Source of the DNA: a virus | DNA length: 35,688 nucleotides | UHGV virus genome: UHGV-0123446 | Direction: 5' to 3' (one strand) | Shown here: piece by piece, positions 1 to 35,351 of the stretch | Layout of the letters: every line of letters starts with the position of its first letter | Numbering within the stretch: the stretch's first letter is position 1 | Position numbers and translations under genes: made by a program | Notes under the pieces: generated by a model | Seen by the model: the letters and a program-made list of their open reading frames with translations, nothing else | The model's database searches: none | What the model was told of the DNA's origin: nothing

Positions 1-49
1 TTAGCAAGACTGTGTACATTTGTACACAATTGCAGAGAGAGGAAATGAC

Positions 50-586
50 ATGCGTCGCGCTAACGATCCGCAACGGCGAGAAAAAATTATCCAGGCCACG
101 CTGGAGGCGGTGAAACTTTACGGAATACATGCTGTTACACACCGCAAAATTGCTGCCCTTGCCGGGGTGCCGTTGGGATCGATGACCTACTATTTTTCAG
201 GAATTGATGAGTTGTTGCTGGAGGCGTTCAGCCGTTTTACTGAGATCATGTCCCGGCAATATCAGGCATTTTTTAGCGATGTTAGTGATGCTCCAGGCGC
301 ATGCCAGGCTATCACCGATATGATCTACAGCTCACAGGTCGCAACGCCGGATAATATGGAGCTGATGTACCAGCTCTACGCGCTGGCTAGCCGAAAACCG
401 CTCTTAAAAACGGTAATGCAAAACTGGATGCAGCGCAGTCAACAAACGCTCGAACAATGGTTTGAACCCGGAACCGCCCGCGCGCTTGATGCGTTTATTG
501 AGGGGATGACGCTGCATTTTGTCACCGACCGTAAGCCGCTATCACGCGAGGAGATTTTGAGGATGGTTGAGAGGATTGCTGGGTAG
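50..586 (+). CDS. rcdA: TetR-family transcriptional regulator RcdA (YbjK); the ORF-track start at 20 is probably an upstream in-frame extension
   Basis: N-terminal TetR-type HTH ([29 protein letters not shown]); recognised as E. coli YbjK/RcdA; neighbourhood with ybjL-ybjM-grxA matches the K-12-type locus. Confidence 0.8.
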
Positions 587-589
587 TAG

Positions 590-616
590 ATAAATTTCAG
601 GCAACAAAAAACCCAT
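590..616. repeat. attL core: 27-bp sequence ataaatttcaggcaacaaaaaacccat, repeated exactly at 32847..32873
   Basis: Exact 27-bp direct repeat bracketing the prophage; integrase gene lies immediately inside this copy. Confidence 0.75.
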
Positions 617-635
617 TTATGTAAACGGGTTAATG

Positions 636-667
636 AAAACAATAAGTTAGAGTAAAAACAATAAGTT
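636..667. repeat. Two direct copies of aaaacaataagtt (636..648 and 655..667), candidate integrase arm-type binding sites
   Basis: 13-bp direct repeat 19 bp apart, between att core and int; arm-site role is inference. Confidence 0.35.
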
Positions 668-690
668 GGGTTGGTGGTCAGTGGTGGTTA

Positions 691-1743
691 TTACGGGGTA
701 ATGCCAACCGCTGCCGCCACTTTGTCGCCACTTGGCAGCGTTGCCAGAGGATTGAAACGGAGCGCCGTTTCCAGATGATCTGGTGCCAGATGTGCGTAAC
801 GCATAGTCATTTTTATATCGTGGTGTCCGAGAATTTTTTGTAAGGCGAGAATGTTTCCACCCGACATCATGAAGTGCGCCGCAAATGTATGGCGCAGAAC
901 GTGTGTGAGTTGACCGCGAGGGAGCACGATAGACGTTTTTTCCATCACGGATAAAAATTGAAAATAGCAGTCTGTAAAGAAATTGAACCCATCAAGCGCC
1001 ATGATCTCTTCGTAAAGCTCTTTACTGATAGGGATGCTTCTGTTTTTCTTCCCCTTCGTTCTGACAAAGGTAATTCGGTATTTGGTCACCTGTGAGCGGG
1101 TAAGATTTACGGCTTCACGCCAGCGTGCGCCTGTGCTTAAGCATATCTTAACTACCAGTGCCAGAATCGGGTCCTGACGTTTACAATCAGCCAGCAATTC
1201 AACAATCTGCTCATGGGTAAGCCATGCCATCTCTTTTTCTGCGATGGTGAATTTTCGCATGTTCTCCAGTGGGTTCGGATACGACCATTCGCCCAGGCGG
1301 GATAGTTCGCTAAAAACACTACTTAGATAGCTTTGCTCCAGGTTAATGGTGACCGGGCTTGCTCCTTTCTTCCATTTCTCGCTGAAGTAGATCTCACCTG
1401 TCAGGCGTTTATCTCGATAGTGGGCAAACATTTTAGAGGTGAGATCGGTTGCAAGGGGATTGCCCAGAGCGTCAACCATCAACAGCAATTTATCATAGAC
1501 ATGCTGCCCAGCGGTTAGAGATTTACCATGTAGTTTGAACCATAGCTCAACCACGTCTTTCAGTGTTCGACGATCCACTGATTCTCCCAGCCAGGGCTTT
1601 GCTTCGGTTTCTTCCATCGTATGGCGCTCAAAAGCCAGAGCTTCGCCTTTGGTGGCGAATTGTTTACGCACACGACGCCCACTACGTCCGGCGGGGTAAC
1701 ATTCGCAAAGCCATTTTCCTGTGGTGAGTTTTCGTACTGCCAT
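691..1743 (-). CDS. int: Phage integrase, tyrosine recombinase (P2/186 family); start taken at the internal ATG giving MAVRKLTTGKW
   Basis: C-terminal catalytic region with conserved R...HxxR...Y pattern (LTHVLRHTFAAHFMMSGGNILALQKILGHHDIKMTMRYAHL); adjacent to attL. Confidence 0.9.
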   Translation of the reverse strand: MAVRKLTTGKWLCECYPAGRSGRRVRKQFATKGEALAFERHTMEETEAKPWLGESVDRRTLKDVVELWFKLHGKSLTAGQHVYDKLLLMVDALGNPLATDLTSKMFAHYRDKRLTGEIYFSEKWKKGASPVTINLEQSYLSSVFSELSRLGEWSYPNPLENMRKFTIAEKEMAWLTHEQIVELLADCKRQDPILALVVKICLSTGARWREAVNLTRSQVTKYRITFVRTKGKKNRSIPISKELYEEIMALDGFNFFTDCYFQFLSVMEKTSIVLPRGQLTHVLRHTFAAHFMMSGGNILALQKILGHHDIKMTMRYAHLAPDHLETALRFNPLATLPSGDKVAAAVGITP

Positions 1744-1929
1744 AAAAAATGCCCTCCAATAGAGAGCATTTTTACTGTATGCATAACCAGTGTCAATGTA
1801 TGAAATCCTGCGACCATACATCTCACTGAAGCCATAATGAAGTTGGCTATTTTTTGCTATGTGAGTATGTGACTTTTGCGGTTAGCCTGCGGCTCATTGT
1901 TATATTAGGCGCAGATATAAAAGCAAAAT

Positions 1930-2121
1930 TTATCGCGAGTTTTTAGTACAGATTTTTTTTGATTTACTAATAGTTCCATCATTGCAAACGAACTTTCCAT
2001 CGGAGGTACAGTGAGAGACACCTCCCTTTTTCCCAGAACAAGGATAATTTTTAGCATAGGTAGTTAGTGGGTTTAATAACAAAGAGCATGATAAAACCAC
2101 AAAAAATACCTTACCAAGCAT
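1930..2121 (-). CDS. Small secreted cysteine-rich, lysine-rich protein (63 aa, predicted signal peptide), moron-like cargo between cI and int
   Basis: Hydrophobic N-terminal signal [23 protein letters not shown] then a 40-aa mature part with 4 Cys; strong SD (ggagg) upstream of the ATG; AT-rich relative to neighbours. Confidence 0.5.
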
Positions 2122-2136
2122 AGTTTCCTCCCGGTA

Positions 2137-2712
2137 TTACCTAACGTACTTAATTGTTAAACTTATAATTTTCCCAATTATTTCAACATCTTCTATCTTG
2201 CACTCGAAGGCTCTGTTTCCACCTTCAACGAAGATTTTTCCACCGGGTAAACGAGTAATGTCGCGGATTGTTATTTCGCCATCAATACTTATTACCCATT
2301 TACCGTCACGTATATCATCAAATTCTTTATCACAAATAAATTCAGAATTGTTATCTGTGATGACAAAAGGTTTTTTAAACGTAGAGGGTAGAAATCCCTT
2401 ATCAAAAATATAAAAACCGTCTTCACGCAAGGCACCATCAGATAATACATATTTAGCAACTTCCATAGTATTTGTATTACCTGAAGTTTGCTTTGAACCA
2501 TGTCCGGTTGTGAGCCAATTAAGCGAGGTGCCCGTTTCAAGGGCGCACTGGATTACCCATTCTGCTGGGAATGAGTCACGCATGTAGCGTGTGGCGAGTG
2601 TACTTTTAGAGATTCCTAAATGATCGCACAACGCCTGTCGAGTTTTGAATCCATAAGCTTCTACCATGCGCTCTATAGCGCCTCGTCCGCCTTTCTCCAA
2701 ATTCATGGTCAC
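2137..2712 (-). CDS. cI: Prophage immunity repressor, phage 186 CI-like (191 aa, N-terminal HTH)
   Basis: Size and position (upstream of int, divergent from apl/cII); HTH-like segment TRQALCDHLGISKSTLATRYMR; resembles 186 CI rather than the ~99-aa P2 C. Confidence 0.7.
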   Translation of the reverse strand: MTMNLEKGGRGAIERMVEAYGFKTRQALCDHLGISKSTLATRYMRDSFPAEWVIQCALETGTSLNWLTTGHGSKQTSGNTNTMEVAKYVLSDGALREDGFYIFDKGFLPSTFKKPFVITDNNSEFICDKEFDDIRDGKWVISIDGEITIRDITRLPGGKIFVEGGNRAFECKIEDVEIIGKIISLTIKYVR

Positions 2713-2730
2713 TCCAAGTGAACTTTTATC

Positions 2731-2759
2731 TTGACGATTTCACTGTGCGATCGTATGTT
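2731..2759 (+). promoter_or_regulatory. Candidate early lytic promoter (pR-like): TTGACG, 17-bp spacer, TATGTT
   Basis: sigma70-like -35/-10 hexamers with 17-bp spacing in the cI/apl intergenic region, oriented toward apl-cII. Confidence 0.35.
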
Positions 2760-2831
2760 TATGGTGTTCACAAAATACAAACGATCCGTATTCGTCCTGA
2801 TTAATCATCATTAAACGAGGAATGTTGCATC

Positions 2832-3053
2832 ATGAGACCTAACATTTCAATCACTCTTACCACGCCTCATGTGACTATTGAACGCTATAGCGAGCTGACA
2901 GGGCTGTCCATCGATACCATCAATGACATGTTGGCTGACGGACGCCTTATCCGTCACCGTCTGCGCAAAGATAAAAAACGTGAAAAAGTGATGATCAACA
3001 TAGCAGCCATGACCGTTGATGCGCTTTCAGAATGCAATCTAAACCTTAATTAG
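2832..3053 (+). CDS. Apl/Cox-like small DNA-binding protein (excisionase / early repressor of lysogenic promoter)
   Basis: 73-aa basic protein, first gene of the rightward early operon, as in 186 apl / P2 cox. Confidence 0.5.
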
Positions 3054-3079
3054 TTCGATTCTGAAATACATCAGAGGCA

Positions 3080-3595
3080 TTGACCATGTTTGATTACCAA
3101 GTTTCCAAACATCCACATTTTGATGAAGCCTGTCGTGCATTCGCATTGCGCCACAACCTAGTGCAACTGGCAGAACGTGCAGGCATGAATGTGCAGATTC
3201 TGCGGAACAAGCTGAACCCAGCTCAACCTCATTTATTAACCGCACCAGAAATCTGGTTGCTTACCGATCTGACTGAAGATTCAACGCTGGTAGATGGCTT
3301 TCTGGCACAGATTCACTGCCTGCCATGTGTACCGATTAATGAGGTGGCAAAAGAGAAACTGCCGCATTACGTCATGAGTGCAACTGCAGAGATAGGGCGT
3401 GTCGCGGCAGGTGCGGTTTCTGGCGATGTAAAAACCAGTGCAGGCCGTCGTGATGCGATCAGCAGCATTAACTCTGTTACACGACTGATGGCGCTGGCTG
3501 CTGTTTCATTGCAGGCCAGTTTACAGGCTAATCCTGCGATGGCGAGTGCAGTTGATACCGTGACTGGCCTCGGTGCTTCATTCGGTTTGCTGTGA
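3080..3595 (+). CDS. CII-like transcriptional activator (phage 186 CII family)
   Basis: N-terminus [45 protein letters not shown] matches my recollection of 186 CII; about 170 aa; position after apl. Confidence 0.6.
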
Positions 3596-3602
3596 GGTGC
3601 TT

Positions 3603-3803
3603 ATGCTGACGAAAGAACCATCATTTGCATCGCTGCTGGTAAAACAAAGTCCGGCAATGCACTACGGTCACGGCTGGATCATGGGTGAGGATGGTAAACG
3701 CTGGCATCCGTGCCGTTCACAAGATGAATTGCTGGCAGAACTATCTACGAAAAAACGGGGGAACAAATGGCTATTGAAGGCGCTGCGGCGACTGTTCCAT
3801 TAA
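3603..3803 (+). CDS. Hypothetical early protein (66 aa from the internal ATG)
   Basis: ORF in the early operon with ATG preceded by gagg; function unknown. Confidence 0.4.
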   Translation: MLTKEPSFASLLVKQSPAMHYGHGWIMGEDGKRWHPCRSQDELLAELSTKKRGNKWLLKALRRLFH

Positions 3804-4108
3804 GACCCGGTGAACGCCTGAATGGACTTAATCATATTGCGGAGTTAAGGGCGAAAGTTTTTGGTTTGAATATTGAGTCAGAGCTTGAGCGGTTTATTAA
3901 AGATATGCGTGATCCTCGGGATATCAATAATGAACAAAATAAACGGGCACTGGCTGCCATATTCTTTATGGCAAAAATTCCAGCTGAACGTCATAGCATC
4001 AGCATTAATGAGCTGACCACTGACGAAAAGCGGGAGTTGATTAAAGCAATGAATCATTTTCGTGCAGTGGTGAGCTTATTTCCCAGACGGCTAACCATGC
4101 CGAATTAA
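3767..4108 (+). CDS. Hypothetical early protein (113 aa)
   Basis: ORF in the early operon, same strand, overlaps the upstream ORF end; function unknown. Confidence 0.45.
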   Translation: MAIEGAAATVPLRPGERLNGLNHIAELRAKVFGLNIESELERFIKDMRDPRDINNEQNKRALAAIFFMAKIPAERHSISINELTTDEKRELIKAMNHFRAVVSLFPRRLTMPN

Positions 4109-4175
4109 CCAACTAATGAAATTAATGGCGTAAACCCGCCGGGCATCCCTTTATCTAAATTCAGGAGAATTGCTT

Positions 4176-4409
4176 ATGCGTAATATTGAAACCCTCACGA
4201 CCAAAACCGGACCGGATGATGCAGGTCTTAATCTTTTACTGACAGAGGCTCGTCTGGAAGAACGCCGGGCAAGGGCTGAAGCAATGGCTGCTCGCCTCGA
4301 TAGCCTGGCGTGTCATATCACCTCCCGCCAGCTAAACCACGTCGAAGCGGCAGAACTGCTGCGTGTGACTGCTGAAGCAATCCAGAACGAAGCGCAGGAG
4401 ATCCACTGA
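4176..4409 (+). CDS. Hypothetical early protein (77 aa from ATG 4176)
   Basis: aggag SD 8 nt upstream of ATG 4176; stop overlaps the start of the next gene (ATGA). Confidence 0.45.
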   Translation: MRNIETLTTKTGPDDAGLNLLLTEARLEERRARAEAMAARLDSLACHITSRQLNHVEAAELLRVTAEAIQNEAQEIH

Positions 4410-4636
4410 TGGCTGATGCAATGGATCTCGTACAGCAGCGCGTTGAAGAAGAACGCCAACGCCATATCCGTGCTGCCCGTGCCAAAACGCCGGGCGTGTC
4501 CCGCGTGCTTTGCGTTGAGTGTGAAGCGCCAATTCCGCCAGCACGCCGCCGTGCCATTCCGGGTGTGCAGCTTTGCATTACCTGTCAGGAAATCGCAGAG
4601 CTGAAAGGCAAACATTACAACGGAGGTGCTGTATGA
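4409..4636 (+). CDS. TraR/DksA-family C4 zinc-finger protein
   Basis: CVECEAPIPPARRRAIPGVQLCITCQ four-Cys motif typical of phage/plasmid TraR-like proteins; translationally coupled to flanking genes. Confidence 0.65.
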   Translation: MADAMDLVQQRVEEERQRHIRAARAKTPGVSRVLCVECEAPIPPARRRAIPGVQLCITCQEIAELKGKHYNGGAV

Positions 4637-5487
4637 GCACCATCCTGAAATGGGCAGGAAATAAAACCGCCATAATGTCCGAACTGAAAAAGCATCTTCC
4701 TGCTGGCCCGCGACTGGTTGAACCTTTCGCGGGTTCCTGTGCAGTGATGATGGAGACGGATTATCCCAGCTATCTTGTTGCGGATATTAATCCTGATTTA
4801 ATCAACCTCTATAAAAAGGTTGCTGCTGATTGTGAGGCGTTTATATCTCGTGCCAGAGCTTTATTTGAGGAAGCAAACAGGGAGGTGGCTTATTACAACA
4901 TAAGGCAGGAGTTTAATTACTCCACTGAAATTACTGATTTCATGAAAGCGGTATATTTCCTGTATCTCAATCGTCACGGTTACCGTGGTTTATGTCGCTA
5001 TAACAAGAGCGGGCATTTCAACATTCCCTACGGTAATTATAAAAATCCGTATTTCCCTGAAAAAGAAATTCGCGCATTTGCAGAGAAAGCCCAGCGGGCA
5101 ACGTTTATCTGCGCCAGCTTTGATGAAACGCTGGCGATGTTGAAGGTGGGGGATGTGGTGTATTGCGATCCGCCTTATGACGGTACGTTTTCCGGCTATC
5201 ACACTGATGGTTTCACTGAAGATGATCAGTATCACCTGGCATCCATTCTTGAACATCGGTCATCAGAAGGACATCCGGTCATTGTTTCTAACAGTAACAC
5301 GTCTTTGACCCGGTCCCTTTATCGTAATTTCACTCACCACTACATCAGGGCGAAACGCAGCATCGGCGTTGCAGCGGGGGAGGGAAAATTTGCAACAGAG
5401 ATGATTGCCACTAAATCTGCTAATTGGTTTAGTGCCGATTTTAGTAGGGGACGTGACTCTACTGTTATTTTCGGGGTGCAAGTGTGA
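4633..5487 (+). CDS. Orphan DNA adenine methyltransferase (Dam family, N6-adenine); ORF-track start 4573 is an extension
   Basis: N-terminal SAM-binding motif LKWAGNK...EPFAGSCAV and catalytic DPPY motif ([10 protein letters not shown]); no adjacent restriction endonuclease. Confidence 0.85.
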
Positions 5488-6314
5488 AAGAAATGCACCA
5501 CGGAATTCATCATTTCCATGGGACGCCTGTCTGGGGAAGTGCTGGCGACGTTCATCGTATTGCGGTGAGCGGAGCTGGCGCTTTCGTCTCCTATGTACGA
5601 CCAGATCAGATTGCGGCGTCCATTCAGCACGCTCAGGTCGTCGGCATTGATAACGGCGCATTTTCTGCATGGGTGCGTGGGCTAAAAATTAACTGGAGTG
5701 ATTTTTATAAATGGCTCCTGAACTATTACCACCATCCTAAGGTCGCTTTTTTTGTCATTCCTGATGTTGTGGACGGAGGTGAACGTGACAATGATGCCCT
5801 GATAAACGAAGTTCCGAAAATGTTCTACGGGAAGGCAACTCCCGTCTGGCATCTGCACGAGTCAATCGATCGGCTTATCGAGCTATGTCGTGAATGGCCT
5901 CGTGTCTGCTTTGGATCGTCTGGTGAATATGCGGCTATCAGAACTGCGCACTGGCATCGTCGTATGCAGGACGCTTTTGAAGCAATTTATTGCCGACACA
6001 ATTTCAAAACAGCTGTTCATGGTTTGCGCATGCTTGACGGTCGTGTGTTGGGAAATTACCCACTGGCGACTGCCGACAGTACAAATCTTGCCTGCAATGT
6101 CCCCAAATTTAATAGCAAATATCCTGAGCTGACGCGGGCTATTCAGGAGGCTGAGTATTCGCGCAATCTGACGGAAAAGGAGCTGAAAGCTGTCATTCTG
6201 AAAAACCGTTGCGCAATTTTAAAAGGTGCAATTGAAGCTGTTCGCCCACCTTCAGTTTCTGATTGGCTGTCGAATGGTTTGCAGCCTTCACAGCTCGAAC
6301 TGGAGATTGCGTAA
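5484..6314 (+). CDS. Uncharacterised protein (about 275 aa) translationally coupled to dam; function unknown
   Basis: GTG start overlaps the dam stop (GTGA), stop overlaps the gene A start (TAATG); no recognisable nucleotide-binding or zinc motif. Confidence 0.5.
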
Positions 6315-8686
6315 TGAACTACAGCTATTCCTGGAATGCTGAGAAAAAAGCAATCAATCCTTACGTAGAGACAGAAGAGCAATCTTCAGTTTCTGCGCTT
6401 TCAAACCTGATCGCTCTGTACGCTGCCGATAACGAGCAGGAACAGCTGCGCCGCGAGGCACTGAGTGATCAGGTCTGGGAGCGTTATTTCTTTAATGAAT
6501 CCCGTGATCCTGTCCAGCGCGAAATGGAGCAGGATAAGCTCATTAGTCGGGCAAAGCTGGCGCATGAGCAGCAGCGTTTTAATCCAGATATGGTCATTCT
6601 GGCGGACGTCAATGCCCAGCCTTCCCATATCAGCAAGCCGCTGATGCAACGTATTGAATACTTCAGCAGCCTGGGCAGGCCAAAGGCTTATTCCCGCTAT
6701 TTGCGTGAGACGATTAAGCCATGTCTGGAACGGCTGGAGCATGTACGCGACTGTCAGCTATCCACTTCTTTTCGCTTTATGGCAAGCCATGAAGGGCTGG
6801 ACGGCCTGCTGATCCTGCCTGAAATGAGTCAGGATCAGGTGAAACGCCTGTCCACCCTGGTAGCTGCGCATATGAGCATGTGCCTTGATGCAGCTTGTGG
6901 CGATTTGTATGTCACCGATGACGTTAAGCCAGAAGAAATCCGCAAGACATGGGAAAAGGTGGCAGCGGAAACCCTGCGTCTGGATGTCATCCCGCCTGCG
7001 TTTGAGCAACTCCGCCGGAAAAGAAACCGCCGTAAACCCGTGCCCTATGAACTCATTCCGGGTTCGCTGGCGCGTATGTTGTGCGCTGACTGGTGGTACC
7101 GGAAATTATGGAAGATGCGTTGCGAATGGCGGGAAGAGCAGTTGCGTGCTGTCTGCCTGGTCAGCAAAAAAGCATCTCCCTATGTCAGCTATGAAGCCGT
7201 GATGCATAAACGTGAGCAGCGCCGTAAGTCGCTGGAGTTTTTTCGTTCTCATGAACTGGTGAACGAAGACGGCGACACGCTGGACATGGAGGATGTGGTA
7301 AACGCCAGCAGCAGCAACCCTGCGCATCGCCGCAATGAGATGATGGCCTGTGTTAAAGGCCTGGAGCTTATCGCGGAAATGCGCGGTGACTGCGCCGTTT
7401 TCTACACCATCACCTGTCCGTCACGTTTCCATTCCACGCTAAATAATGGCAGGCCCAACCCAACTTGGACAAATGCGACGGTAAGACAAAGCAGTGATTA
7501 TCTGGTCGGCATGTTTGCTGCATTTCGTAAGGCGATGCACAAAGCCGGATTGCGGTGGTATGGCGTGCGGGTGGCTGAGCCGCATCATGACGGTACAGTT
7601 CACTGGCACCTGTTGTGTTTTATGCGCAAAAAAGACCGCCGCGCCATCACTGCATTACTGCGTAAGTTTGCCATCCGTGAAGACCGCGAGGAACTGGGCA
7701 ATAACACTGGGCCGCGCTTTAAGTCTGAGTTGATTAACCCGCGCAAAGGTACGCCAACAAGCTACATCGCGAAATACATCAGTAAGAACATTGACGGGCG
7801 TGGTCTGGCTGGCGAGATCAGCAAGGAAACGGGTAAATCTCTGCGTGATAACGCTGAATACGTTAATGCCTGGGCGTCTCTGCATCGTGTTCAGCAATTC
7901 CGCTTCTTTGGCATTCCGGGGCGTCAGGCTTACCGTGAACTGCGATTGCTGGCTGGTCAGGCGGCAAGGCAACAGGGTGACAAAAAAGCAGGTGCGCCGG
8001 TACTGGATAACCCGCGCCTTGATGCCATTCTGGCTGCAGCTGATGCTGGTTGCTTTGCCACCTACATCATGAAGCAGGGCGGCGTACTGGTTCCCCGTAA
8101 ATATCACCTCATCAGAACCGCTTATGAAATCAACGAAGAGCCGACCGCCTATGGCGATCACGGTATTCGTATTTATGGCATCTGGTCACCCATTGCAGAG
8201 GGCAAGATCTGCACTCATGCAGTGAAGTGGAAAATGGTTCGTAAAGCCGTTGACGTTCAGGAGGCGGCAGCCGACCAGGGCGCTTGCGCCCCTTGGACTC
8301 GTGGCAATAACTGTCCCCTTGCTGAAAGCTTGTACCAACAAGGGAAAGACAAATCAGCTGATGGGGATACCAGAACGGATATCACCCGCATGGATGACAA
8401 GGAATTGCACGATTACCTGCACAGTATGAACAAAAAAGAGCGCCGGGAACTGGCTGCAAGGTTACGCCTGGTGAAACAGAAACGGCGTAGAGACTACAAA
8501 CAGCGAATTACAGATCATCAGCGACAGCAGCTCGTCTATGAACTGAAGTCCAGAGGATTTGATGGCAGCGAGAAAGAGGTCGATTTACTCCTTCGCGGTG
8601 GCAGTATTCCGTCAGGAGCAGGCCTGCGTATCTTCTATCGGAACCAGCGTTTGCAGGAAGATGATAAGTGGCGGGATCTGTATTAA
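6314..8686 (+). CDS. A: Replication initiation protein gpA (rolling-circle replication endonuclease), P2/186 family
   Basis: About 790 aa, last gene of the early operon; start ATG overlaps the upstream stop; ORF-track start 6263 is an extension. Confidence 0.85.
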
Positions 8687-9570: not shown

Positions 9571-10605
9571 ATGGATAAAAGATATCAGGTTTTTGTTAGT
9601 TCAACTTTTGCTGATCTTGAAGAAGAAAGACAGGAAGTAATGCAAGCACTGCTGGAGCTTGATTGTATGCCAGCAGGAATGGAATTATTTCCAGCAACAA
9701 ATAGTGATCAGTGGAGTTTAATAAAAAAAATAATTGACGATAGTGATTATTATATTGTTATCTTGGCAGGGCGTTATGGTTCAATTGGTCCTGATGGAAT
9801 AAGCTATACAGAAATGGAGTATCGTTATGCTTTGGAAACTGGTAAGCCAGTTATAGGTTTTATTCATAAAGATAAAAGTAACCTCCCCGCAAAACGTTGT
9901 GAGTCAAACCCTGAAGGCGTAGAAAAACTAAAGGCTTTCGAAGAGCTAGTTAAAACAAAATTATGTCGTTTTTGGGAGTCTCCTGCAGAGTTAGGTAGCC
10001 AGGTTAGCAGAAGTTTGATTAGACTAATTAAAGAATGTCCTGCAATTGGGTGGGTTAAAGGAAATTTAGTAACTAATGATGGTGATGCAAAGGAAATATT
10101 GAAATTAAAAAGGCGAATTGAGGAGCTTGAAAGTCAACTTGTATCAAGTATGACTGAAGCGCCTGCAGGTGCAGAAAAACTATCTCAAGGAGATGAGCTT
10201 TTTGAATTGGATTATGAATTCTGTGTGTCGCCTACAGAATGGAGACATAATGGTGAAGAATATACCGATAAGGTCAAATTAAGCTGGAACGATATTTTTT
10301 CATATGTTTCGCCTTTGATGATAGATGAGATAGTGGATGATAAGCTATATAGTGCTTTAAATAACTGTGTGCGAAATGCAGTTCAAGATATCATCTATGA
10401 GGATTTTAAAGATATGAATTTATTATCTTTAAAAGTATCTAATTCTGATTTCCAAACAATAAAAGTGCAGTTTAGGGCGCTTGGGTTAATTATTAAAAGT
10501 GAAAAGAGTAGAAGTGTTAAAGATAAAGGTACTTATTGGACTTTAACACCGTATGGCGAAAATTTAATGACAACATTGAGAGCGATTAAAAAAACTTTGG
10601 TATAG
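9571..10605 (+). CDS. Cargo protein of 344 aa with DUF4062/TIR-like N-terminal domain; candidate anti-phage defence protein
   Basis: Clean ORF with its own promoter and terminator; AT-rich; N-terminal pattern YQVFVSSTFADLEEER...DYYIVILAGRYGS...SYTEMEYRYA...GKPVIGFI recalled as the DUF4062 signature; no Walker A; coiled-coil-like stretch KEILKLKRRIEELESQL; unknown C-terminal half. Confidence 0.6.
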   Translation: MDKRYQVFVSSTFADLEEERQEVMQALLELDCMPAGMELFPATNSDQWSLIKKIIDDSDYYIVILAGRYGSIGPDGISYTEMEYRYALETGKPVIGFIHKDKSNLPAKRCESNPEGVEKLKAFEELVKTKLCRFWESPAELGSQVSRSLIRLIKECPAIGWVKGNLVTNDGDAKEILKLKRRIEELESQLVSSMTEAPAGAEKLSQGDELFELDYEFCVSPTEWRHNGEEYTDKVKLSWNDIFSYVSPLMIDEIVDDKLYSALNNCVRNAVQDIIYEDFKDMNLLSLKVSNSDFQTIKVQFRALGLIIKSEKSRSVKDKGTYWTLTPYGENLMTTLRAIKKTLV

Positions 10606-23306: not shown

Positions 23307-23747
23307 ATGAATTACATATATTCCGCGACTACAAACTCTTTCTATCCGCTGGAGATGAAAGAGGATTACACTCAAGCTGACTCATGGCCAGATGATGCTG
23401 TTGAAGTTGATGAGCAAGTGTATATTGCGTTTTCCGGATTACCGCCGAAAGGAAAAATCCGTATCGCTGGAGAAAATGGTTTTCCTGCATGGTCCGAAAT
23501 TCCACCACCAACACATGAGGAACAAATTGCTGCAGCCGAACTGGAGAAGCAGCAATTGATTAATCAGGCCAACGATTATATGAACAGTAAACAATGGCCT
23601 GGTAAAGCGGCTATTGGTCGTCTGAAAGGTGACGAACTGGCGCAATATAATTTGTGGCTGGATTACCTGGACGCACTGGAACTGGTCGATACTTCCGGTG
23701 CGCCAGATATTGAATGGCCTACGCCTCCGGCAGTTCAGGCCAGATGA
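23307..23747 (+). CDS. G: Tail fibre assembly chaperone gpG (currently expressed orientation)
   Basis: 146 aa, conserved Tfa C-terminal pattern (LELVDTSGAPDIEWPTPP); directly after H. Confidence 0.8.
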   Translation: MNYIYSATTNSFYPLEMKEDYTQADSWPDDAVEVDEQVYIAFSGLPPKGKIRIAGENGFPAWSEIPPPTHEEQIAAAELEKQQLINQANDYMNSKQWPGKAAIGRLKGDELAQYNLWLDYLDALELVDTSGAPDIEWPTPPAVQAR

Positions 23748-24324
23748 CATCCGGCGCGGTGCTGGTATCTGTTGCCGTCACCGCGTCAATGTAATCCAGC
23801 ACAGCGTTAAGTCGGGTGGTTTCTGCCTGCGTCAGCTTCCGCCCGGCCTGCAATTTCAGTTGAATCAGACTGATGGAAGCCATTGCAGTATCAATCAGTG
23901 ACTGACGCTGTGCTTCTGCCGCGTCTACTGCGGCGCTATGCTGTGCCTCAGTATCGGTCACCCATTTCTTACCATCCCATTTATCGAATGGCGTTAACGG
24001 GGCGATAGTGGTTGTATTTTCAGGATAATCACCCGGAGCTGTGATTTCTTTGGCGTCTCCCGTTTCGGTGTTATAGACGATTTCACCGCGATGGTCTGGC
24101 ACATATTCCCATGCGTTTAAATCCATCGAACGGCAGATAGCATAACCCGCCTTATGTGTGCCAGGAGCATCTAAACAGGAATATGCAGGGATACCGACAC
24201 CCACAGCAAGATATTCAGTTGATGCAGAAATATACTCCCGTGTCTCACTGTCATAGTTATAAACGGTAATCTCTCCTGCCTTTGTGGCAATAAATTTACT
24301 ATTCAAGATGGCGTTATACATCAT
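23719..24324 (-). CDS. Alternative tail fibre assembly chaperone (inverse-orientation partner)
   Basis: 201 aa, Tfa-like C-terminus (DTSTAPDVIWPELPEA); convergent with and overlapping G; downstream of the alternative fibre tip segment. Confidence 0.75.
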   Translation of the reverse strand: MMYNAILNSKFIATKAGEITVYNYDSETREYISASTEYLAVGVGIPAYSCLDAPGTHKAGYAICRSMDLNAWEYVPDHRGEIVYNTETGDAKEITAPGDYPENTTTIAPLTPFDKWDGKKWVTDTEAQHSAAVDAAEAQRQSLIDTAMASISLIQLKLQAGRKLTQAETTRLNAVLDYIDAVTATDTSTAPDVIWPELPEA

Positions 24325-24857
24325 GCAGCCCTCACAATGTAATTAAATGAAATATTACGTGGGCGTGTCTCTGCTGCACCGACAATACTGGTACTCAACC
24401 CCGTCGCTGTTCGTTTGTTATTTTTATTTCCTTCAATCAGACAGTTGTAATCATCATTACCAATTAACGAATTAGTGGCATCAATACCGTCCGGGGACAA
24501 GGCATTAGTTGTAGAACTTAAAGTCAGCATCTCGTCTGAACTTGGAAGATTTTTTAATGGTATTTCATTGCGAGAAATACCCGCGTAAAAAAAGGACTCA
24601 TGCCTGTGCGCTTCAAAAGAGTCATCCTGAAGACTTAGCAAGGCACGTCCCGCATCCACACCACGCCCGTCATCCCAGCCACGAATAAACTCACCACGTA
24701 AATCAGGCAATTTATTTGTCGGATAAGCCTTTGCCAGTTCCGGGTATTCTTCAGCAGAAAAAGCGGCACCGTTACATTTCAGCCAGCCTGTTGGCGGAGT
24801 GGCGGAAGGCCACGGAACAGGCACGCCAACGGGTAATGCCGAACCTTCTCCCAAACC
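24321..24857 (-). CDS. Alternative tail-fibre C-terminal segment (promoterless; would be fused to the H constant part after inversion)
   Basis: Begins at the hix-like site with the same GLGE junction as H; contains the LPVGVPVPWPS...GWLKCNG...LPDLRG motif typical of Mu/P1/e14-type fibre variable parts. Confidence 0.7.
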   Translation of the reverse strand, partial: GLGEGSALPVGVPVPWPSATPPTGWLKCNGAAFSAEEYPELAKAYPTNKLPDLRGEFIRGWDDGRGVDAGRALLSLQDDSFEAHRHESFFYAGISRNEIPLKNLPSSDEMLTLSSTTNALSPDGIDATNSLIGNDDYNCLIEGNKNNKRTATGLSTSIVGAAETRPRNISFNYIVRAA

Positions 24858-24871
24858 AACGTTTAAGGAAA
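24846..24871. other. hix/gix-like invertase recombination site (right)
   Basis: ttctcccaaaccaacgtttaaggaaa; inverted relative to the site at 22921..22946; about 50 bp upstream of the invertase gene. Confidence 0.55.
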
Positions 24872-24920
24872 TGCAGAGGTAACAGCTAACTGGCATCATC
24901 TCCGGTTTTTATTCAGGGGG

Positions 24921-25493
24921 ATGATCATGCTTATTGGCTATGTACGCGTGTCAACAAATGACCAGAACACCGATTTGCAACGTAATGCACTGAACTGCGC
25001 GGGATGTGAGCGGATTTTTGAGGACAAAATCAGTGGCACTAAGTCCGACAGACCGGGGCTGAAAAAACTACTCAGGACACTATCGGCAGGAGACACGCTG
25101 GTTGTCTGGAAGCTGGACAGGTTGGGACGCAGTATGCGGCATCTTGTTACGCTGATAGAAGAGTTGCGCCAGCGTGGCGTGAATTTCCGAAGCCTGACTG
25201 ACAGTATTGATACCAGTACCCCAATGGGCCGTTTCTTTTTTCATGTCATGGGTGCCCTGGCTGAAATGGAACGCGAACTGATAGTTGAACGTACCAGGGC
25301 GGGGATTGCTGCAGCTCGCGACAAAGGCAGAGTAGGTGGACGCCGTCCTAAGTTGACCACCGAACAGTGGGCACAGATTGGACGTTTACTAGAGGCCGGA
25401 GAATCAAGACAGCGTATTGCACTGATTTTTGATGTGGGCGTTTCTACCATTTATAGAAAATTTCCGGCAAATAAGAGCAGTGAATCCCCCTGA
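24921..25493 (+). CDS. Serine DNA invertase (Hin/Gin/Pin/Cin family)
   Basis: N-terminal resolvase catalytic domain IGYVRVSTNDQ...VVWKLDRLGRS...MGRFFFHVMGALAEMERELIVERT and C-terminal HTH; closely resembles Hin. Confidence 0.9.
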   Translation: MIMLIGYVRVSTNDQNTDLQRNALNCAGCERIFEDKISGTKSDRPGLKKLLRTLSAGDTLVVWKLDRLGRSMRHLVTLIEELRQRGVNFRSLTDSIDTSTPMGRFFFHVMGALAEMERELIVERTRAGIAAARDKGRVGGRRPKLTTEQWAQIGRLLEAGESRQRIALIFDVGVSTIYRKFPANKSSESP

Positions 25494-33018: not shown

Positions 33019-34704
33019 TTATCCTAATCCTGGCCATACCATGACGATGATTGTCCCTGCCAGCGTCAGCAGGACGTTGGCGATTGCATAGGTGCCCGCA
33101 TAGCCCAGCGCCGGGATGTTACTGCGAGCTGTATCACTGATGATCTCCATTGCCGGCGCGCAGGTGCGTGCGCCCATCATTGCGCCGAATAACAGTGCGC
33201 GGTTCATTCGCAATACATAAGCACCGAACAAGAAACAGATAACCACTGGCACAAGACTGACAATCAATCCGGCAATCAACATCTGACCGCCAATCGCGCC
33301 CAGGCCGTTATTAATACCGCTACCGGCGCTCAGACCAACGCCTGCCATAAACACCATTAAGCCGAACTCTTTCACCATGCTTAATGCACCCTGCGGAATG
33401 TAACCGAAGGTCGGGTGGTTAGCGCGCATAAATCCCAGCATAATTCCGGCGAATAACAACCCGGCAGCGTTCCCCATGCCGAAACTGAATGTGCTGAACT
33501 GGAAGGTGATCATCCCGATCATCAGCCCAATAACAAAGAAGGCGCAGAATGCCAGCAAGTCAGTGACCTGGCTGTGAATCGAGATAAAGCCGATGCGATC
33601 GGCGATGGTTTTTACGCGACGGGCATCGCCGCTGACTTGTAAAACGTCACCTTTGTTAAGCACGACGTTGTCATCTATCGGCATCTCAATCTGGCTACGA
33701 ATGACGCGGTTAAGGAAGCAACCGTGATCGGTCAACTTCAGTTGTGCGAGACGTTTGCCCACGGCGTTATGGTTTTTAACGACCACTTCTTCAGTGACGA
33801 TACGCATGTCGAGAAGGTCACGATCGAAAACTTCTTTGCCGTTACGGAAGCTGGGATCGAGTCGGGCGTGGGCGTCGGGATAGCCTACCAACGCTATTTC
33901 ATCTCCCATTTGTAGCACAGCATCACCGTCTGGATTCGCCAGAATCCCGTTACGTCGAATACGTTCAATGTAGCAGCCGGTTTGTCGATAAATACCCAGT
34001 TCACGCAGATTTTTGCCGTCGGTCCAGGCCACCAGCTCCGGGCCGACGCGGTAGGCGCGGATCACCGGTAAATAAACCTTACGGTTGGCATCAGTGTCCA
34101 GGCCACGTTCGCGGGCGATTTGCTGGGCGCTGGTCTGTAAGTCCTGATGCTGCAATTTCGGCAAGTAACGCGCACCAACAATCAAACTCACCAGACCGAT
34201 TAAATAGGTTAAGGCATACCCGAGGCTCAGATTATCCAGTGCCAGTGAGAGCTGCCTGCTTTCCATGCCGGAATGACGCAGTGTATCGCCAGCACCGACC
34301 AGAACCGGTGTCGACGTCATAGAGCCAGCTAACATACCGGCCGTCAGGCCAATATCCCAGCCAAACAGCTTACCTAACCCTAAGGCGATCACCAGCGCAC
34401 TGCCAACCATCACCAGTGCTAACATTAGGTAATTTTTCCCATCGCGAAAAAAAATGGAAAAAAAGTTCGGTCCGGCTTCGACCCCGACGCAGAAAATAAA
34501 CAGCATAAAGCCAAGATTAAGCGCGTCGGTGTTAATGCTGAAATGTTGTTGGCCTAATAACAGCGATACGACTAAAACGCCAATGGAATTACCCAGTTGG
34601 ATCGAACCAAGTCGTAATTTCCCGAGACATAGCCCAAGCGCGAGGACCACAAATAATAACAGAATGTAATTCCCATTTAACAATTCGGCGACGTTTATAT
34701 TCAC
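33019..34704 (-). CDS. ybjL: Putative transport protein YbjL (AAE-family transporter with two cytoplasmic regulatory domains)
   Basis: 561 aa with multiple TM segments at both ends and a central soluble region; recognised as E. coli YbjL; position next to ybjM/grxA. Confidence 0.85.
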
Positions 34705-34973
34705 GGAGGCTAACTTCTTGTTTACTAGTAAGCTGTTGAAAGAAATGGTAATTTACGATAATGTTTTTTACCAGAATTCAGGGCGCAGATTCATTCAGCG
34801 CACCTAAACGATAGTAAAGTAACAATATATTTTACTAGTGTAATCACATTAGGTATCAACGGCTATATGAATTGCGTTGGCCTATATTAGCATGGAATGC
34901 GAAGCGGCTTTATCTTACTGAACGCCACACTGGCGAAAAATGTGTTCGATAGACGCAGTGTCAGGAGGAACGA

Positions 34974-35351
34974 GTGAAACATAAACAACGTTGGGCGGGG
35001 GCAATCTGCTGTTTTGTCCTCTTCATTGTGGTGTGTCTTTTTCTGGCGACGCACATGAAAGGCGCTTTTCGGGCTGCCGGGCATCCTGAAATCGGTTTGC
35101 TATTTTTCATTCTTCCTGGTGCAGTTGCCAGCTTCTTTTCACATCGTAGAGAAGTCCTGAAACCTCTGTTTGGCGCAATGCTGGCGGCACCCTGTTCGAT
35201 GCTCATTATGCGGCTGTTTTTTTCACCGACGCGCTCATTCTGGCAAGAGCTGGCATGGTTATTAAGTGCGGTGTTCTGGTGTGCGCTGGGGGCATTGTGT
35301 TTCTTATTTATCAGTAGCTTGTTTAAACCACAGCACAGAAAAAATCAATAA
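34974..35351 (+). CDS. ybjM: Inner membrane protein YbjM
   Basis: 125 aa, four hydrophobic segments; locus context. Confidence 0.7.
   Translation: MKHKQRWAGAICCFVLFIVVCLFLATHMKGAFRAAGHPEIGLLFFILPGAVASFFSHRREVLKPLFGAMLAAPCSMLIMRLFFSPTRSFWQELAWLLSAVFWCALGALCFLFISSLFKPQHRKNQ

Follow-up and report, generated by a model that had tools for sequence, protein, structure and literature searches.

The 63-codon open reading frame (ORF) at positions 1930..2121 (minus strand) of the window, the 35,688-nt stretch of virus DNA analyzed here, is a genuine protein-coding gene under purifying selection, and its product belongs to the YdcA family. The gene sits directly behind the immunity repressor gene cI of a P2/186-type prophage, and relative to phage 186 itself it is an extra gene. 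The available evidence supports a product with the hallmarks of a periplasmic mini-protein that is exported by Sec and bonded by disulfides. We tentatively favor, at somewhat under an even chance and largely by analogy, a role as an envelope-level protective factor of the superinfection-exclusion type that the prophage would provide to its host. That the gene exists was already known from annotation, its family had been catalogued, and envelope-protein genes in lysogeny modules are an established kind. What is new is the linkage of the family to cI across genera, including an unannotated gene in phage HP2, together with its homology to Legionella Dis2, its fusions to nucleases, and a hairpin that separates the gene from int.

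The gene between cI and int

The window begins in the host gene rcdA (TetR family, 20..586) and then enters the P2/186-type prophage, in which int, the ORF and cI all lie on the minus strand, with the ORF between the other two genes. The upstream gene, the 186-type immunity repressor gene cI (2137..2712; PGAP-type start at 2706), matches PF07022 (2.8e-33) and PF16452 (1.3e-28), is named "phage repressor protein CI" in RefSeq copies, and probably belongs to the same transcription unit as the ORF. The downstream gene, int (691..1743), encodes a P2/186-type tyrosine integrase (PF24624 and PF00589); its ATG at 1743 agrees with the PGAP-annotated 1053-nt int of the copy L005, which places the spacer between the ORF and int at 1744..1929. 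On the plus strand, past cI, apl-like and cII genes are followed by fil-region genes, a Dam-type methylase gene and gpA. The order and sizes of the window ORFs of at least 120 aa, seven of which were scanned against Pfam, are of the P2 type.

An earlier note on this DNA had singled out the ORF (ATG start, 63 codons plus stop), and its position between cI and int, its strand and its translation are exactly as quoted there. The cI stop codon (2139..2137) is separated from the ORF by a 15-nt spacer (2122..2136, minus strand), which reads TACCGGGAGGAAACT and holds the Shine-Dalgarno sequence GGGAGGA (2132..2126), located 6 nt 5′ of the ATG and as strong as had been claimed; this Shine-Dalgarno sequence is kept in copies L004–L006. 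In phage 186, the start of int is overlapped by the stop of cI; the phage record assigns pL and pE to a lysogenic operon, cI-int-orf69, with a terminator past attP at its end, in agreement with the 186-type operon that the earlier note had invoked. Because cI and int overlap in phage 186, the window has 393 extra bases (1744..2136) within that operon. The surroundings of the ORF had been described as AT-rich in comparison with int and cI, and this holds in part: the ORF has a GC content of 0.35 and the ORF–int spacer one of 0.38, but the C-terminal half of cI is low as well (0.34), with higher values only in int (0.49) and in the N-terminal half of cI (0.47).

The coding status of the ORF follows from its pattern of substitution. 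Compared with the most diverged of the sampled E. coli copies (L004), the ORF carries 11 synonymous differences and one conservative non-synonymous difference (K24R), corresponding to a pN/pS of 0.007/0.257 (ratio ~0.03). In comparisons with the Escherichia, Hafnia, Klebsiella and Yersinia copies, the mature part has a pN of 0.03–0.08 with pS saturated, and between genera the signal peptide has a pN of 0.44–0.60; such a pattern is the one that would be expected of an exported protein with a tightly constrained mature domain. A 501-bp region is present in 998 of the 5426 complete E. coli genomes, and the int–ORF–cI stretch (1400–2500) is covered to at least 80% in 588 of the 5426, about 1 in 9. 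The carriers of the cI-ydcA-int arrangement include ATCC 8739 and a BL21(DE3) derivative; the ORF of BL21(DE3) is identical to that of the window. All 27 full-length matches sampled from the 588 genomes (88.7–100% identity) have an annotated CDS beneath them, and the names given to it are "hypothetical protein" or "YdcA family protein".

The converse reading, which the earlier note had kept as an alternative, is that the frame arose by chance in a non-coding, AT-rich spacer, such as an Int/IHF-binding or regulatory region, and although the ORF is short and low in GC and the adjoining spacer has regulatory-looking RNA structure, the synonymous-dominated substitutions against L004 and the retention of the mature peptide while synonymous sites are saturated refute it, and with a product that exceeds a curated NCBIfam cut-off and a family of 460 representatives whose domain also recurs within larger proteins, its probability is negligible.

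The predicted product and the YdcA family

Residues 1–23 (2053..2121, minus strand) constitute a predicted Sec signal peptide with cleavage after A23, as judged by inspection from hydropathy (9-residue Kyte-Doolittle) and the −3/−1 rule. The n-region, MLGK, is followed by a hydrophobic core with 9-residue means of 2.2–2.7 and by a c-region, NPLTTYA, with threonine at −3 and alanine at −1. In the family alignment, A23 (position −1) is at least 90% conserved, and the other leader positions vary freely. The mature part (1933..2052, minus strand) is a YdcA domain of 40 aa (4.26 kDa, pI 9.6, net charge +7) with four invariant cysteines, an assignment that draws on the family alignment, the pN values, the AlphaFold2 model and the Dis2 homology described below; the predicted signal peptide and the four-cysteine mature part agree with those of the earlier note. 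We infer with high confidence that, following Sec export and cleavage behind A23, the product is oxidized to a ~4.3-kDa, strongly basic, two-disulfide periplasmic mini-protein, with DsbA as the enzyme that would carry out the oxidation. A lipoprotein reading of the lipobox-like stretch VLS-C12 was considered and rejected, as Cys12 is too near the N-terminus and the equivalent residues in relatives (LLF-C, LLI-C) violate the lipobox rule.

Family membership is indicated by several profiles. The product exceeds the cut-off of NCBIfam NF007463 (PRK10040.1-2), with 116.1 bits against 93, and matches PHROG 6000 over its full length (4.6e-34). Nearly all homologues carry a precomputed match to the Pfam family PF27300 (YdcA), among them the 97%-identical cluster to which the exact window protein belongs; a Pfam scan of the product with a copy of the database without PF27300 gave only a spurious sub-threshold match. 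The homology and structure searches of the mature peptide that the earlier note had called for thus lead to the YdcA family and, as described below, to a lobe of Dis2. That note had missed that the protein belongs to a catalogued family and already carries the label "YdcA family protein" in RefSeq.

The mature part is 73% identical to E. coli K-12-type YdcA over 37 aligned residues. On the second PRK10040 equivalog, NF007462, which we take to be the model of the chromosomal YdcA, the product scores 68 bits, below the cut-off of 118, and the window gene therefore represents a paralogous, phage-borne subfamily outside that equivalog. The name itself calls for some care: the B. subtilis rhomboid, the pS88 plasmid methylase and the toxin-antitoxin gene of the gonococcal genetic island that are also called "ydcA" are unrelated. 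The name "Conjugal transfer protein" given to the UniRef cluster of the window protein is likewise unsupported, with the gene matched in only 5 of 72,556 plasmid records.

A family profile search of 1.84 billion representatives (E ≤ 0.001) returned 460 members, counted as representatives at 50% identity. A search with a 63-column alignment gave 543 matches; all 120 matches listed are stand-alone, and no new fusions appear among them. In an alignment of 132 diverse sequences the invariant columns are C28, S29, G30, G33, G34, C38, F44, C46, G49, S52, S54 and C58, every one of which is found in the window protein. The four cysteines fall within the family motif PCSGxKGG[IV]xxC...F[VI]CxDGxxSxSKKxC, and throughout the family alignment the domain starts directly past the predicted signal-peptide cleavage site.

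In several genera, prophages carry a homologue, 62–72% identical to the window protein, directly 3′ of their 186-type cI. The gene order is cI-YdcA-KAP NTPase-int in both Escherichia and Klebsiella, cI-YdcA-347-aa protein-int in Hafnia, and cI-YdcA-int in Yersinia. The Haemophilus phages HP2 and S2 contain a 60-codon homologue (49% identity, E = 2e-18); in HP2, where the record leaves it unannotated, its ATG overlaps the cI stop, beginning at the last base of that codon, and orf1(S) and int come next. The protein encoded by orf1(S) has a signal peptide and an OB-fold tRNA_anti-like domain. Linkage to cI in five genera identifies the gene as a long-standing companion of this repressor type and argues against a one-off insertion.

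The linkage to cI is not universal, since members of the family also occupy a lambdoid nin region in Citrobacter, structural modules of siphophages from Moraxella and Acinetobacter, a site beside ogr in Xenorhabdus, small plasmids of Acinetobacter, and chromosomes. Phage records with family members come from Haemophilus, Moraxella, Acinetobacter and Pseudomonas, and no cultured enterobacterial phage in a collection of 50,697 phage records carries the gene.

The AlphaFold2 model of the protein (43 sequences) contains a short β-hairpin and has a mean pLDDT of 79, rising to ~90 at residues 31–50. Foldseek against the PDB returned a single meaningful match, chain AN of 7MUC/7MUD, which is Legionella Dis2 (Lpg0823), with a probability of 0.99 and 39% identity over 38 columns; against the viral structures of BFVD, nothing better than E = 1.5 was found. 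Dis2 is also reached by sequence, with phmmer (E = 3.1e-5) and with the family profile (E = 3e-4), and the agreement of the structure and sequence searches indicates that each lobe of Dis2 is a YdcA-like unit. The Dis2 papers PMC8486379 and PMC12716638 make no mention of this relationship. In these studies Dis2 is located near the outer membrane, pinned by disulfides, where it touches DotK, DotC and DotD (PMC8486379; PMC12716638).

The domain also occurs within longer proteins. Among the 60 longest of the 150 representatives listed, the fusions consist of a signal peptide, the YdcA domain, a linker and a second domain. In 5 of these 60 the second domain is a nuclease (three Endonuclease_NS, one staphylococcal nuclease and one of PLD type), and the partner families, PF01223, PF00565 (SNase) and PF13091, have unrelated folds. 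Other partners are VasL, DUF4124, a PBCV basic-adaptor domain, tandem YdcA repeats, and coiled-coil or low-complexity tails. Of 258 copies, 79% have a basic core domain, and the mean charge of the family is +3.6. Together, the Dis2 homology, the fusions, the charge and the HP2 neighbor mark the YdcA lobe as a docking module of the periplasm. Its ligand may be a protein or lipid surface close to the outer membrane, as for Dis2, or nucleic acid, as the nuclease partners suggest.

Probable transcription with cI and the hairpin before int

A consensus promoter scan revealed no promoter-like site upstream of the ORF inside cI, and a terminator scan revealed no terminator-like site between cI and the ORF. 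In the absence of a promoter-like site of its own, and with a strong Shine-Dalgarno sequence 15 nt behind cI, the gene would naturally be expected to be expressed by the resident prophage. We infer with high confidence, from these sequence features, that the ORF is cotranscribed with cI from the lysogenic promoters and that its product is made continuously in the lysogen. The earlier proposal that the gene is embedded in the cI–int operon is thus supported on the cI side and must be qualified on the int side, where a hairpin intervenes.

The ORF–int spacer (1744..1929, minus strand) is 186 nt long, and its int-proximal 60 nt (to ~1803) form part of the int module, being common to prophages of other immunity types. 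The RNA of the spacer folds far above shuffled controls (z = −4.4). The main element is a terminator-like 13-bp hairpin, AAAAAUGCUCUCU-AUU-GGAGGGCAUUUUU (1745..1773, minus strand; ΔG = −16.4 kcal/mol, z = −6.5), which is followed by one more U (1744) and then by the AUG of int (1743..1741), such that the U-run abuts the AUG and the 3′ arm of the hairpin is the Shine-Dalgarno sequence of int. The hairpin is kept in L004 and L008, a G·U pair is replaced by G-C in one diverged copy, and the Hafnia copy L015 has a hairpin of other sequence in an equivalent layout 5′ of int. A simple terminator scan of the minus strand between the ORF and int returned nothing; the hairpin was found by RNA folding, and its A/U extensions probably hid the U-run from the scan. 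An Rfam search of positions 1..5000 at E ≤ 1 also returned nothing.

A consensus scan further finds a promoter-like site upstream of int, TTGACA-17-AAAAAT (1768..1796, minus strand), which matches at 10 of 12 positions as a pattern and overlaps the 5′ arm of the hairpin. Transcripts that come from cI and the YdcA gene would end at the hairpin or else have their int ribosome-binding site occluded, and transcripts from the int-proximal promoter would be without the 5′ arm. If the hairpin acts as proposed, the YdcA gene would be the distal gene of the maintenance transcript.

Candidate functions and related systems

The interval between cI and int is occupied by different genes in different prophages. 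Prophages of other immunity types that share this int diverge from the window at ~1803 (query position ~404 of 1400–2500) and fill the cI–int interval with different cargo, such as the PADLOC candidate PDC-M11A/B. The KAP NTPase gene that lies behind the YdcA gene in some lineages is the PADLOC candidate PDC-S20, and the Klebsiella phage 4LV2017 has a 349-aa protein of unknown family in the slot. The cI–int interval of K139-like Vibrio prophages is a hotspot for defence systems (Rousset et al., PMC9122126), and according to a survey from 2026, 8% of the defence systems in P2 lie between integrase and primase (PMC13586616). In the record of the Vibrio cholerae phage K139, glo lies between cI and int in the PL operon and is annotated as "periplasmic protein; involved in phage exclusion".

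The step from a periplasmic protein to the tentatively favored exclusion role is taken on three grounds: the conserved linkage to cI, which is kept in four enterobacterial genera and in Haemophilus HP2/S2 (49–72% identity), the exclusion or defence cargo that the slot holds elsewhere (glo, PDC-S20 and PDC-M11A/B), and the precedent of Glo. The envelope docking of the relative Dis2 is consistent with this role, and the nuclease fusions and the basic core domain provide a link to nucleic acid. In the proposed mechanism, the lobe, small and pinned by disulfides, would attach to an envelope structure close to the outer membrane, as in Dis2; alternatively, in line with the nuclease fusions, it would dock on periplasmic nucleic acid. 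Either mode of docking would hinder the entry of foreign DNA, and the repressor made from the same transcript would meanwhile silence homoimmune phage.

Several observations weigh against a protective role. The window protein matches no family among the PADLOC-DB 2.0 models at E ≤ 0.001, Glo is not homologous to it, the nuclease fusions are few, and the family also occurs outside the cI slot. Deletion of Dis2 has only subtle effects (PMC12716638), so that this structural relative says little about function, and the stress-type phenotypes that are the only ones of the paralogue ydcA fit host fitness equally well.

These last phenotypes bear directly on the main rival reading, in which the protein would be a lysogenic-conversion fitness factor that acts as the chromosomal YdcA does, in envelope or stress tolerance (for example, of organic acid or low pH). 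The lysogen would then gain regardless of other phages. The literature gives no function for YdcA; deletion of ydcA renders E. coli W sensitive to 300 mM 3-hydroxypropionate, and the gene is reported to be up-regulated at pH 5 (PMC7642389). A SELEX site for the RpoS holoenzyme lies in the rydC/ydcA intergenic region, upstream of ydcA (PMC5493296). Together with the 73% identity between the mature parts of the two proteins and with a family that is mostly stand-alone and often chromosomal, these findings are what would be expected of a fitness factor. The tight and repeated placement of the gene behind cI, in a slot for exclusion and defence genes, speaks instead for a phage-centered role, and the window gene falls in NF007463, a different equivalog from NF007462. 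On balance a pure fitness role appears somewhat unlikely, though it deserves serious weight.

A further reading takes the basic lobe to bind nucleic acid, such that it would sequester or block phage, transforming or conjugative DNA in the periplasm. This is a sub-mechanism of the protective role and competes with the version in which the lobe docks on an envelope protein. It would account for the presence of N-terminal YdcA domains on three unrelated folds of secreted nucleases, for the net charge of +7 here and of +3.6 on average in the family, and for the OB-fold domain encoded next to the HP2 gene, and it would suit phage carriers from Haemophilus, Moraxella, Acinetobacter and Pseudomonas, as several of these genera are competent for natural transformation. 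The contacts reported for Dis2, the sole solved relative, are with protein and not with DNA, and the fusion partners other than nucleases fit a general anchoring module better. Phage DNA, moreover, is normally shielded within the tail channel as it crosses the periplasm. We consider binding to DNA the most interesting variant of the proposed function and, at the same time, an unlikely one.

That the product is a bacteriocin-like peptide secreted to kill competitors, as the earlier note had also suggested, is very improbable: it is indeed small, cationic and cysteine-rich, but its leader is of the Sec type, as opposed to a dedicated one such as a double-glycine leader, and would reach only the periplasm of a Gram-negative cell, its flanks are cI and int with no genes for immunity, processing or export, the domain occurs internally in periplasmic proteins and in a type IV secretion system (T4SS) component, and its strong conservation across genera is unlike that of fast-evolving bacteriocins. 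The wider proposal of that note, a small exported protein acting as a moron, is retained in so far as the gene is real and extra and its product has Sec and periplasmic features, with the bacteriocin-like option weakened.

A broader and decidedly speculative proposal, to which we assign a low probability, is that the YdcA lobe represents a hitherto unrecognized and widespread module of the periplasm, also present in Dis2, that directs proteins to the site near the outer membrane at which DNA passes the envelope or itself binds that DNA, and that several temperate phage families have captured stand-alone copies of it behind their repressors as a minimal 40-residue entry-exclusion protein. The incoming DNA concerned could be that of phages, conjugative elements or transformation. 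The repressor-linked position, the Dis2 homology and the nuclease fusions together turn a "hypothetical protein" into a cheaply testable hypothesis. The YdcA family comprises at least 460 diverged representatives, and Dis2 is structurally solved and functionally opaque; if the exclusion role is true, the window protein would be among the smallest known exclusion proteins and would offer the first functional handle on both YdcA and Dis2.

A close known relative is YdcA of E. coli K-12 (b1419), which has the same architecture of a predicted signal peptide and domain and the same four invariant cysteines as the window protein. The two differ in genomic setting: K-12 ydcA lies at the chromosomal cybB-ydcA-hokB locus (PMC5072838), whereas the window gene lies directly behind cI in a 186-type prophage. 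With Dis2 the window protein shares a homologous lobe that is pinned by disulfides in the periplasm, disulfides and location both being predicted for the window protein. Dis2, with 124 aa, two lobes and five disulfides, is built stoichiometrically into the T4SS outer-membrane cap; the window protein, in contrast, is a single lobe with four cysteines, and no T4SS genes were seen among the window ORFs of at least 120 aa, seven of which were scanned against Pfam.

With respect to exclusion proteins, Ltp of the Streptococcus phage TP-J34 and SieA of P22 are encoded in lysogeny modules and expressed by the prophage, and they counter incoming phage DNA from outside the cytoplasm (PMC3952083). Both are membrane-anchored proteins or lipoproteins of unrelated sequence, whereas the window protein is predicted to be soluble and is much smaller. 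A further parallel is Glo of phage K139, which is described in a passage of PMC3952083, citing Nesper et al. 1999, as a soluble periplasmic exclusion protein. Glo, for which the exclusion phenotype has been shown, has 137 aa and another composition, and BLASTP detects no sequence similarity to the window protein (E = 0.17); as the two are not homologous, the analogy is one of position and compartment only. Glo has an N-terminal signal peptide and, like the predicted product of the window gene, is a periplasmic protein encoded in the lysogenic operon of a P2-related phage, in the slot between cI and int.

Hairpin and Promoter-Like Site Preceding int

Between the YdcA gene and int, RNA folding predicts a 13-bp hairpin resembling a terminator (−16.4 kcal/mol, z = −6.5) that, together with an overlapping promoter-like site, spans window positions 1745–1796 on the minus strand. 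The 3′ arm of the hairpin is the Shine-Dalgarno sequence of int, the AUG of which directly adjoins the U-run, and the 5′ arm is overlapped by a pattern match to a promoter-like TTGACA-17-AAAAAT. This hairpin is kept in diverged Escherichia coli copies, and a Hafnia prophage carries a hairpin of the same layout in a different sequence. These features suggest that the transcript of cI and int are uncoupled.

Apparent Junctions and Cargo in the cI-int Slot

Two apparent recombination junctions are visible around the 63-aa YdcA-family ORF (window 1930–2121, minus strand), at about 1803 and about 1953. Homology of the window to prophages of other immunity types stops near the former, and homology to a lineage carrying a KAP-family NTPase starts near the latter, within the 3′ end of the ORF, where it gives an alternative C terminus (…KKTCIK).

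Candidate defence genes occupy the cI-int slot of relatives at L007 1142–2473, L012/L017 4198–5529, and L008 2923–4342. The KAP-family NTPase, which matches the PADLOC candidate system PDC-S20, directly follows the YdcA gene in relatives, and a prophage with a different immunity type has PDC-M11A/B as its cargo. In Haemophilus phage HP2, the next gene of the lysogenic operon, orf1(S) (L001 3112–3876, plus strand), encodes a protein that combines a signal-peptide-like N terminus and an OB-fold tRNA_anti-like domain (PF12869, 2.8e-13); this product is possibly a second periplasmic nucleic-acid-binding protein.

YdcA Domains in Other Contexts

In representative fusion proteins (P0104, P0153, P0194, P0206, and P0097), the YdcA domain directly follows a signal peptide and is joined to SNase, Endonuclease_NS, or PLD-type nuclease domains or to a VasL (type VI secretion) domain. 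Other proteins (P0065–P0069) contain two or three YdcA repeats in tandem. Very small Acinetobacter plasmids of about 4 kb (NZ_CP139254 and NZ_CP016902) carry a gene that is 74–76% identical, at the nucleotide level, to a portion of the window's YdcA-family ORF.

Prophage Context and Other Regions of the Window

The prophage is flanked by the host gene rcdA (window 20–586) and by ybjL/ybjM-like host genes (33019–35351). From the sizes of its ORFs alone, its P2-type gene set appears to be complete. Decay has affected the copy of a BL21(DE3) derivative and that of ETEC4075, in which cII is truncated and runs into fragments of late or replication genes, but both retain intact cI, int, and YdcA genes.

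The region at window 23719–24899 (minus strand) and 24921–25493 (plus strand) encodes a C-terminal piece of a tail fibre, with a Collar domain, and a tail-fibre assembly protein, both on the strand opposite to the remaining tail module, and next to them a 190-aa ORF; this layout looks like an invertible host-range segment. A 344-aa DUF4062 protein (9571–10605, plus strand), which has no match in PADLOC, is encoded between gpA (6263–8686) and the portal gene region, an interval that has been published as a defence hotspot (gpA-gpQ) in P2-like phages.
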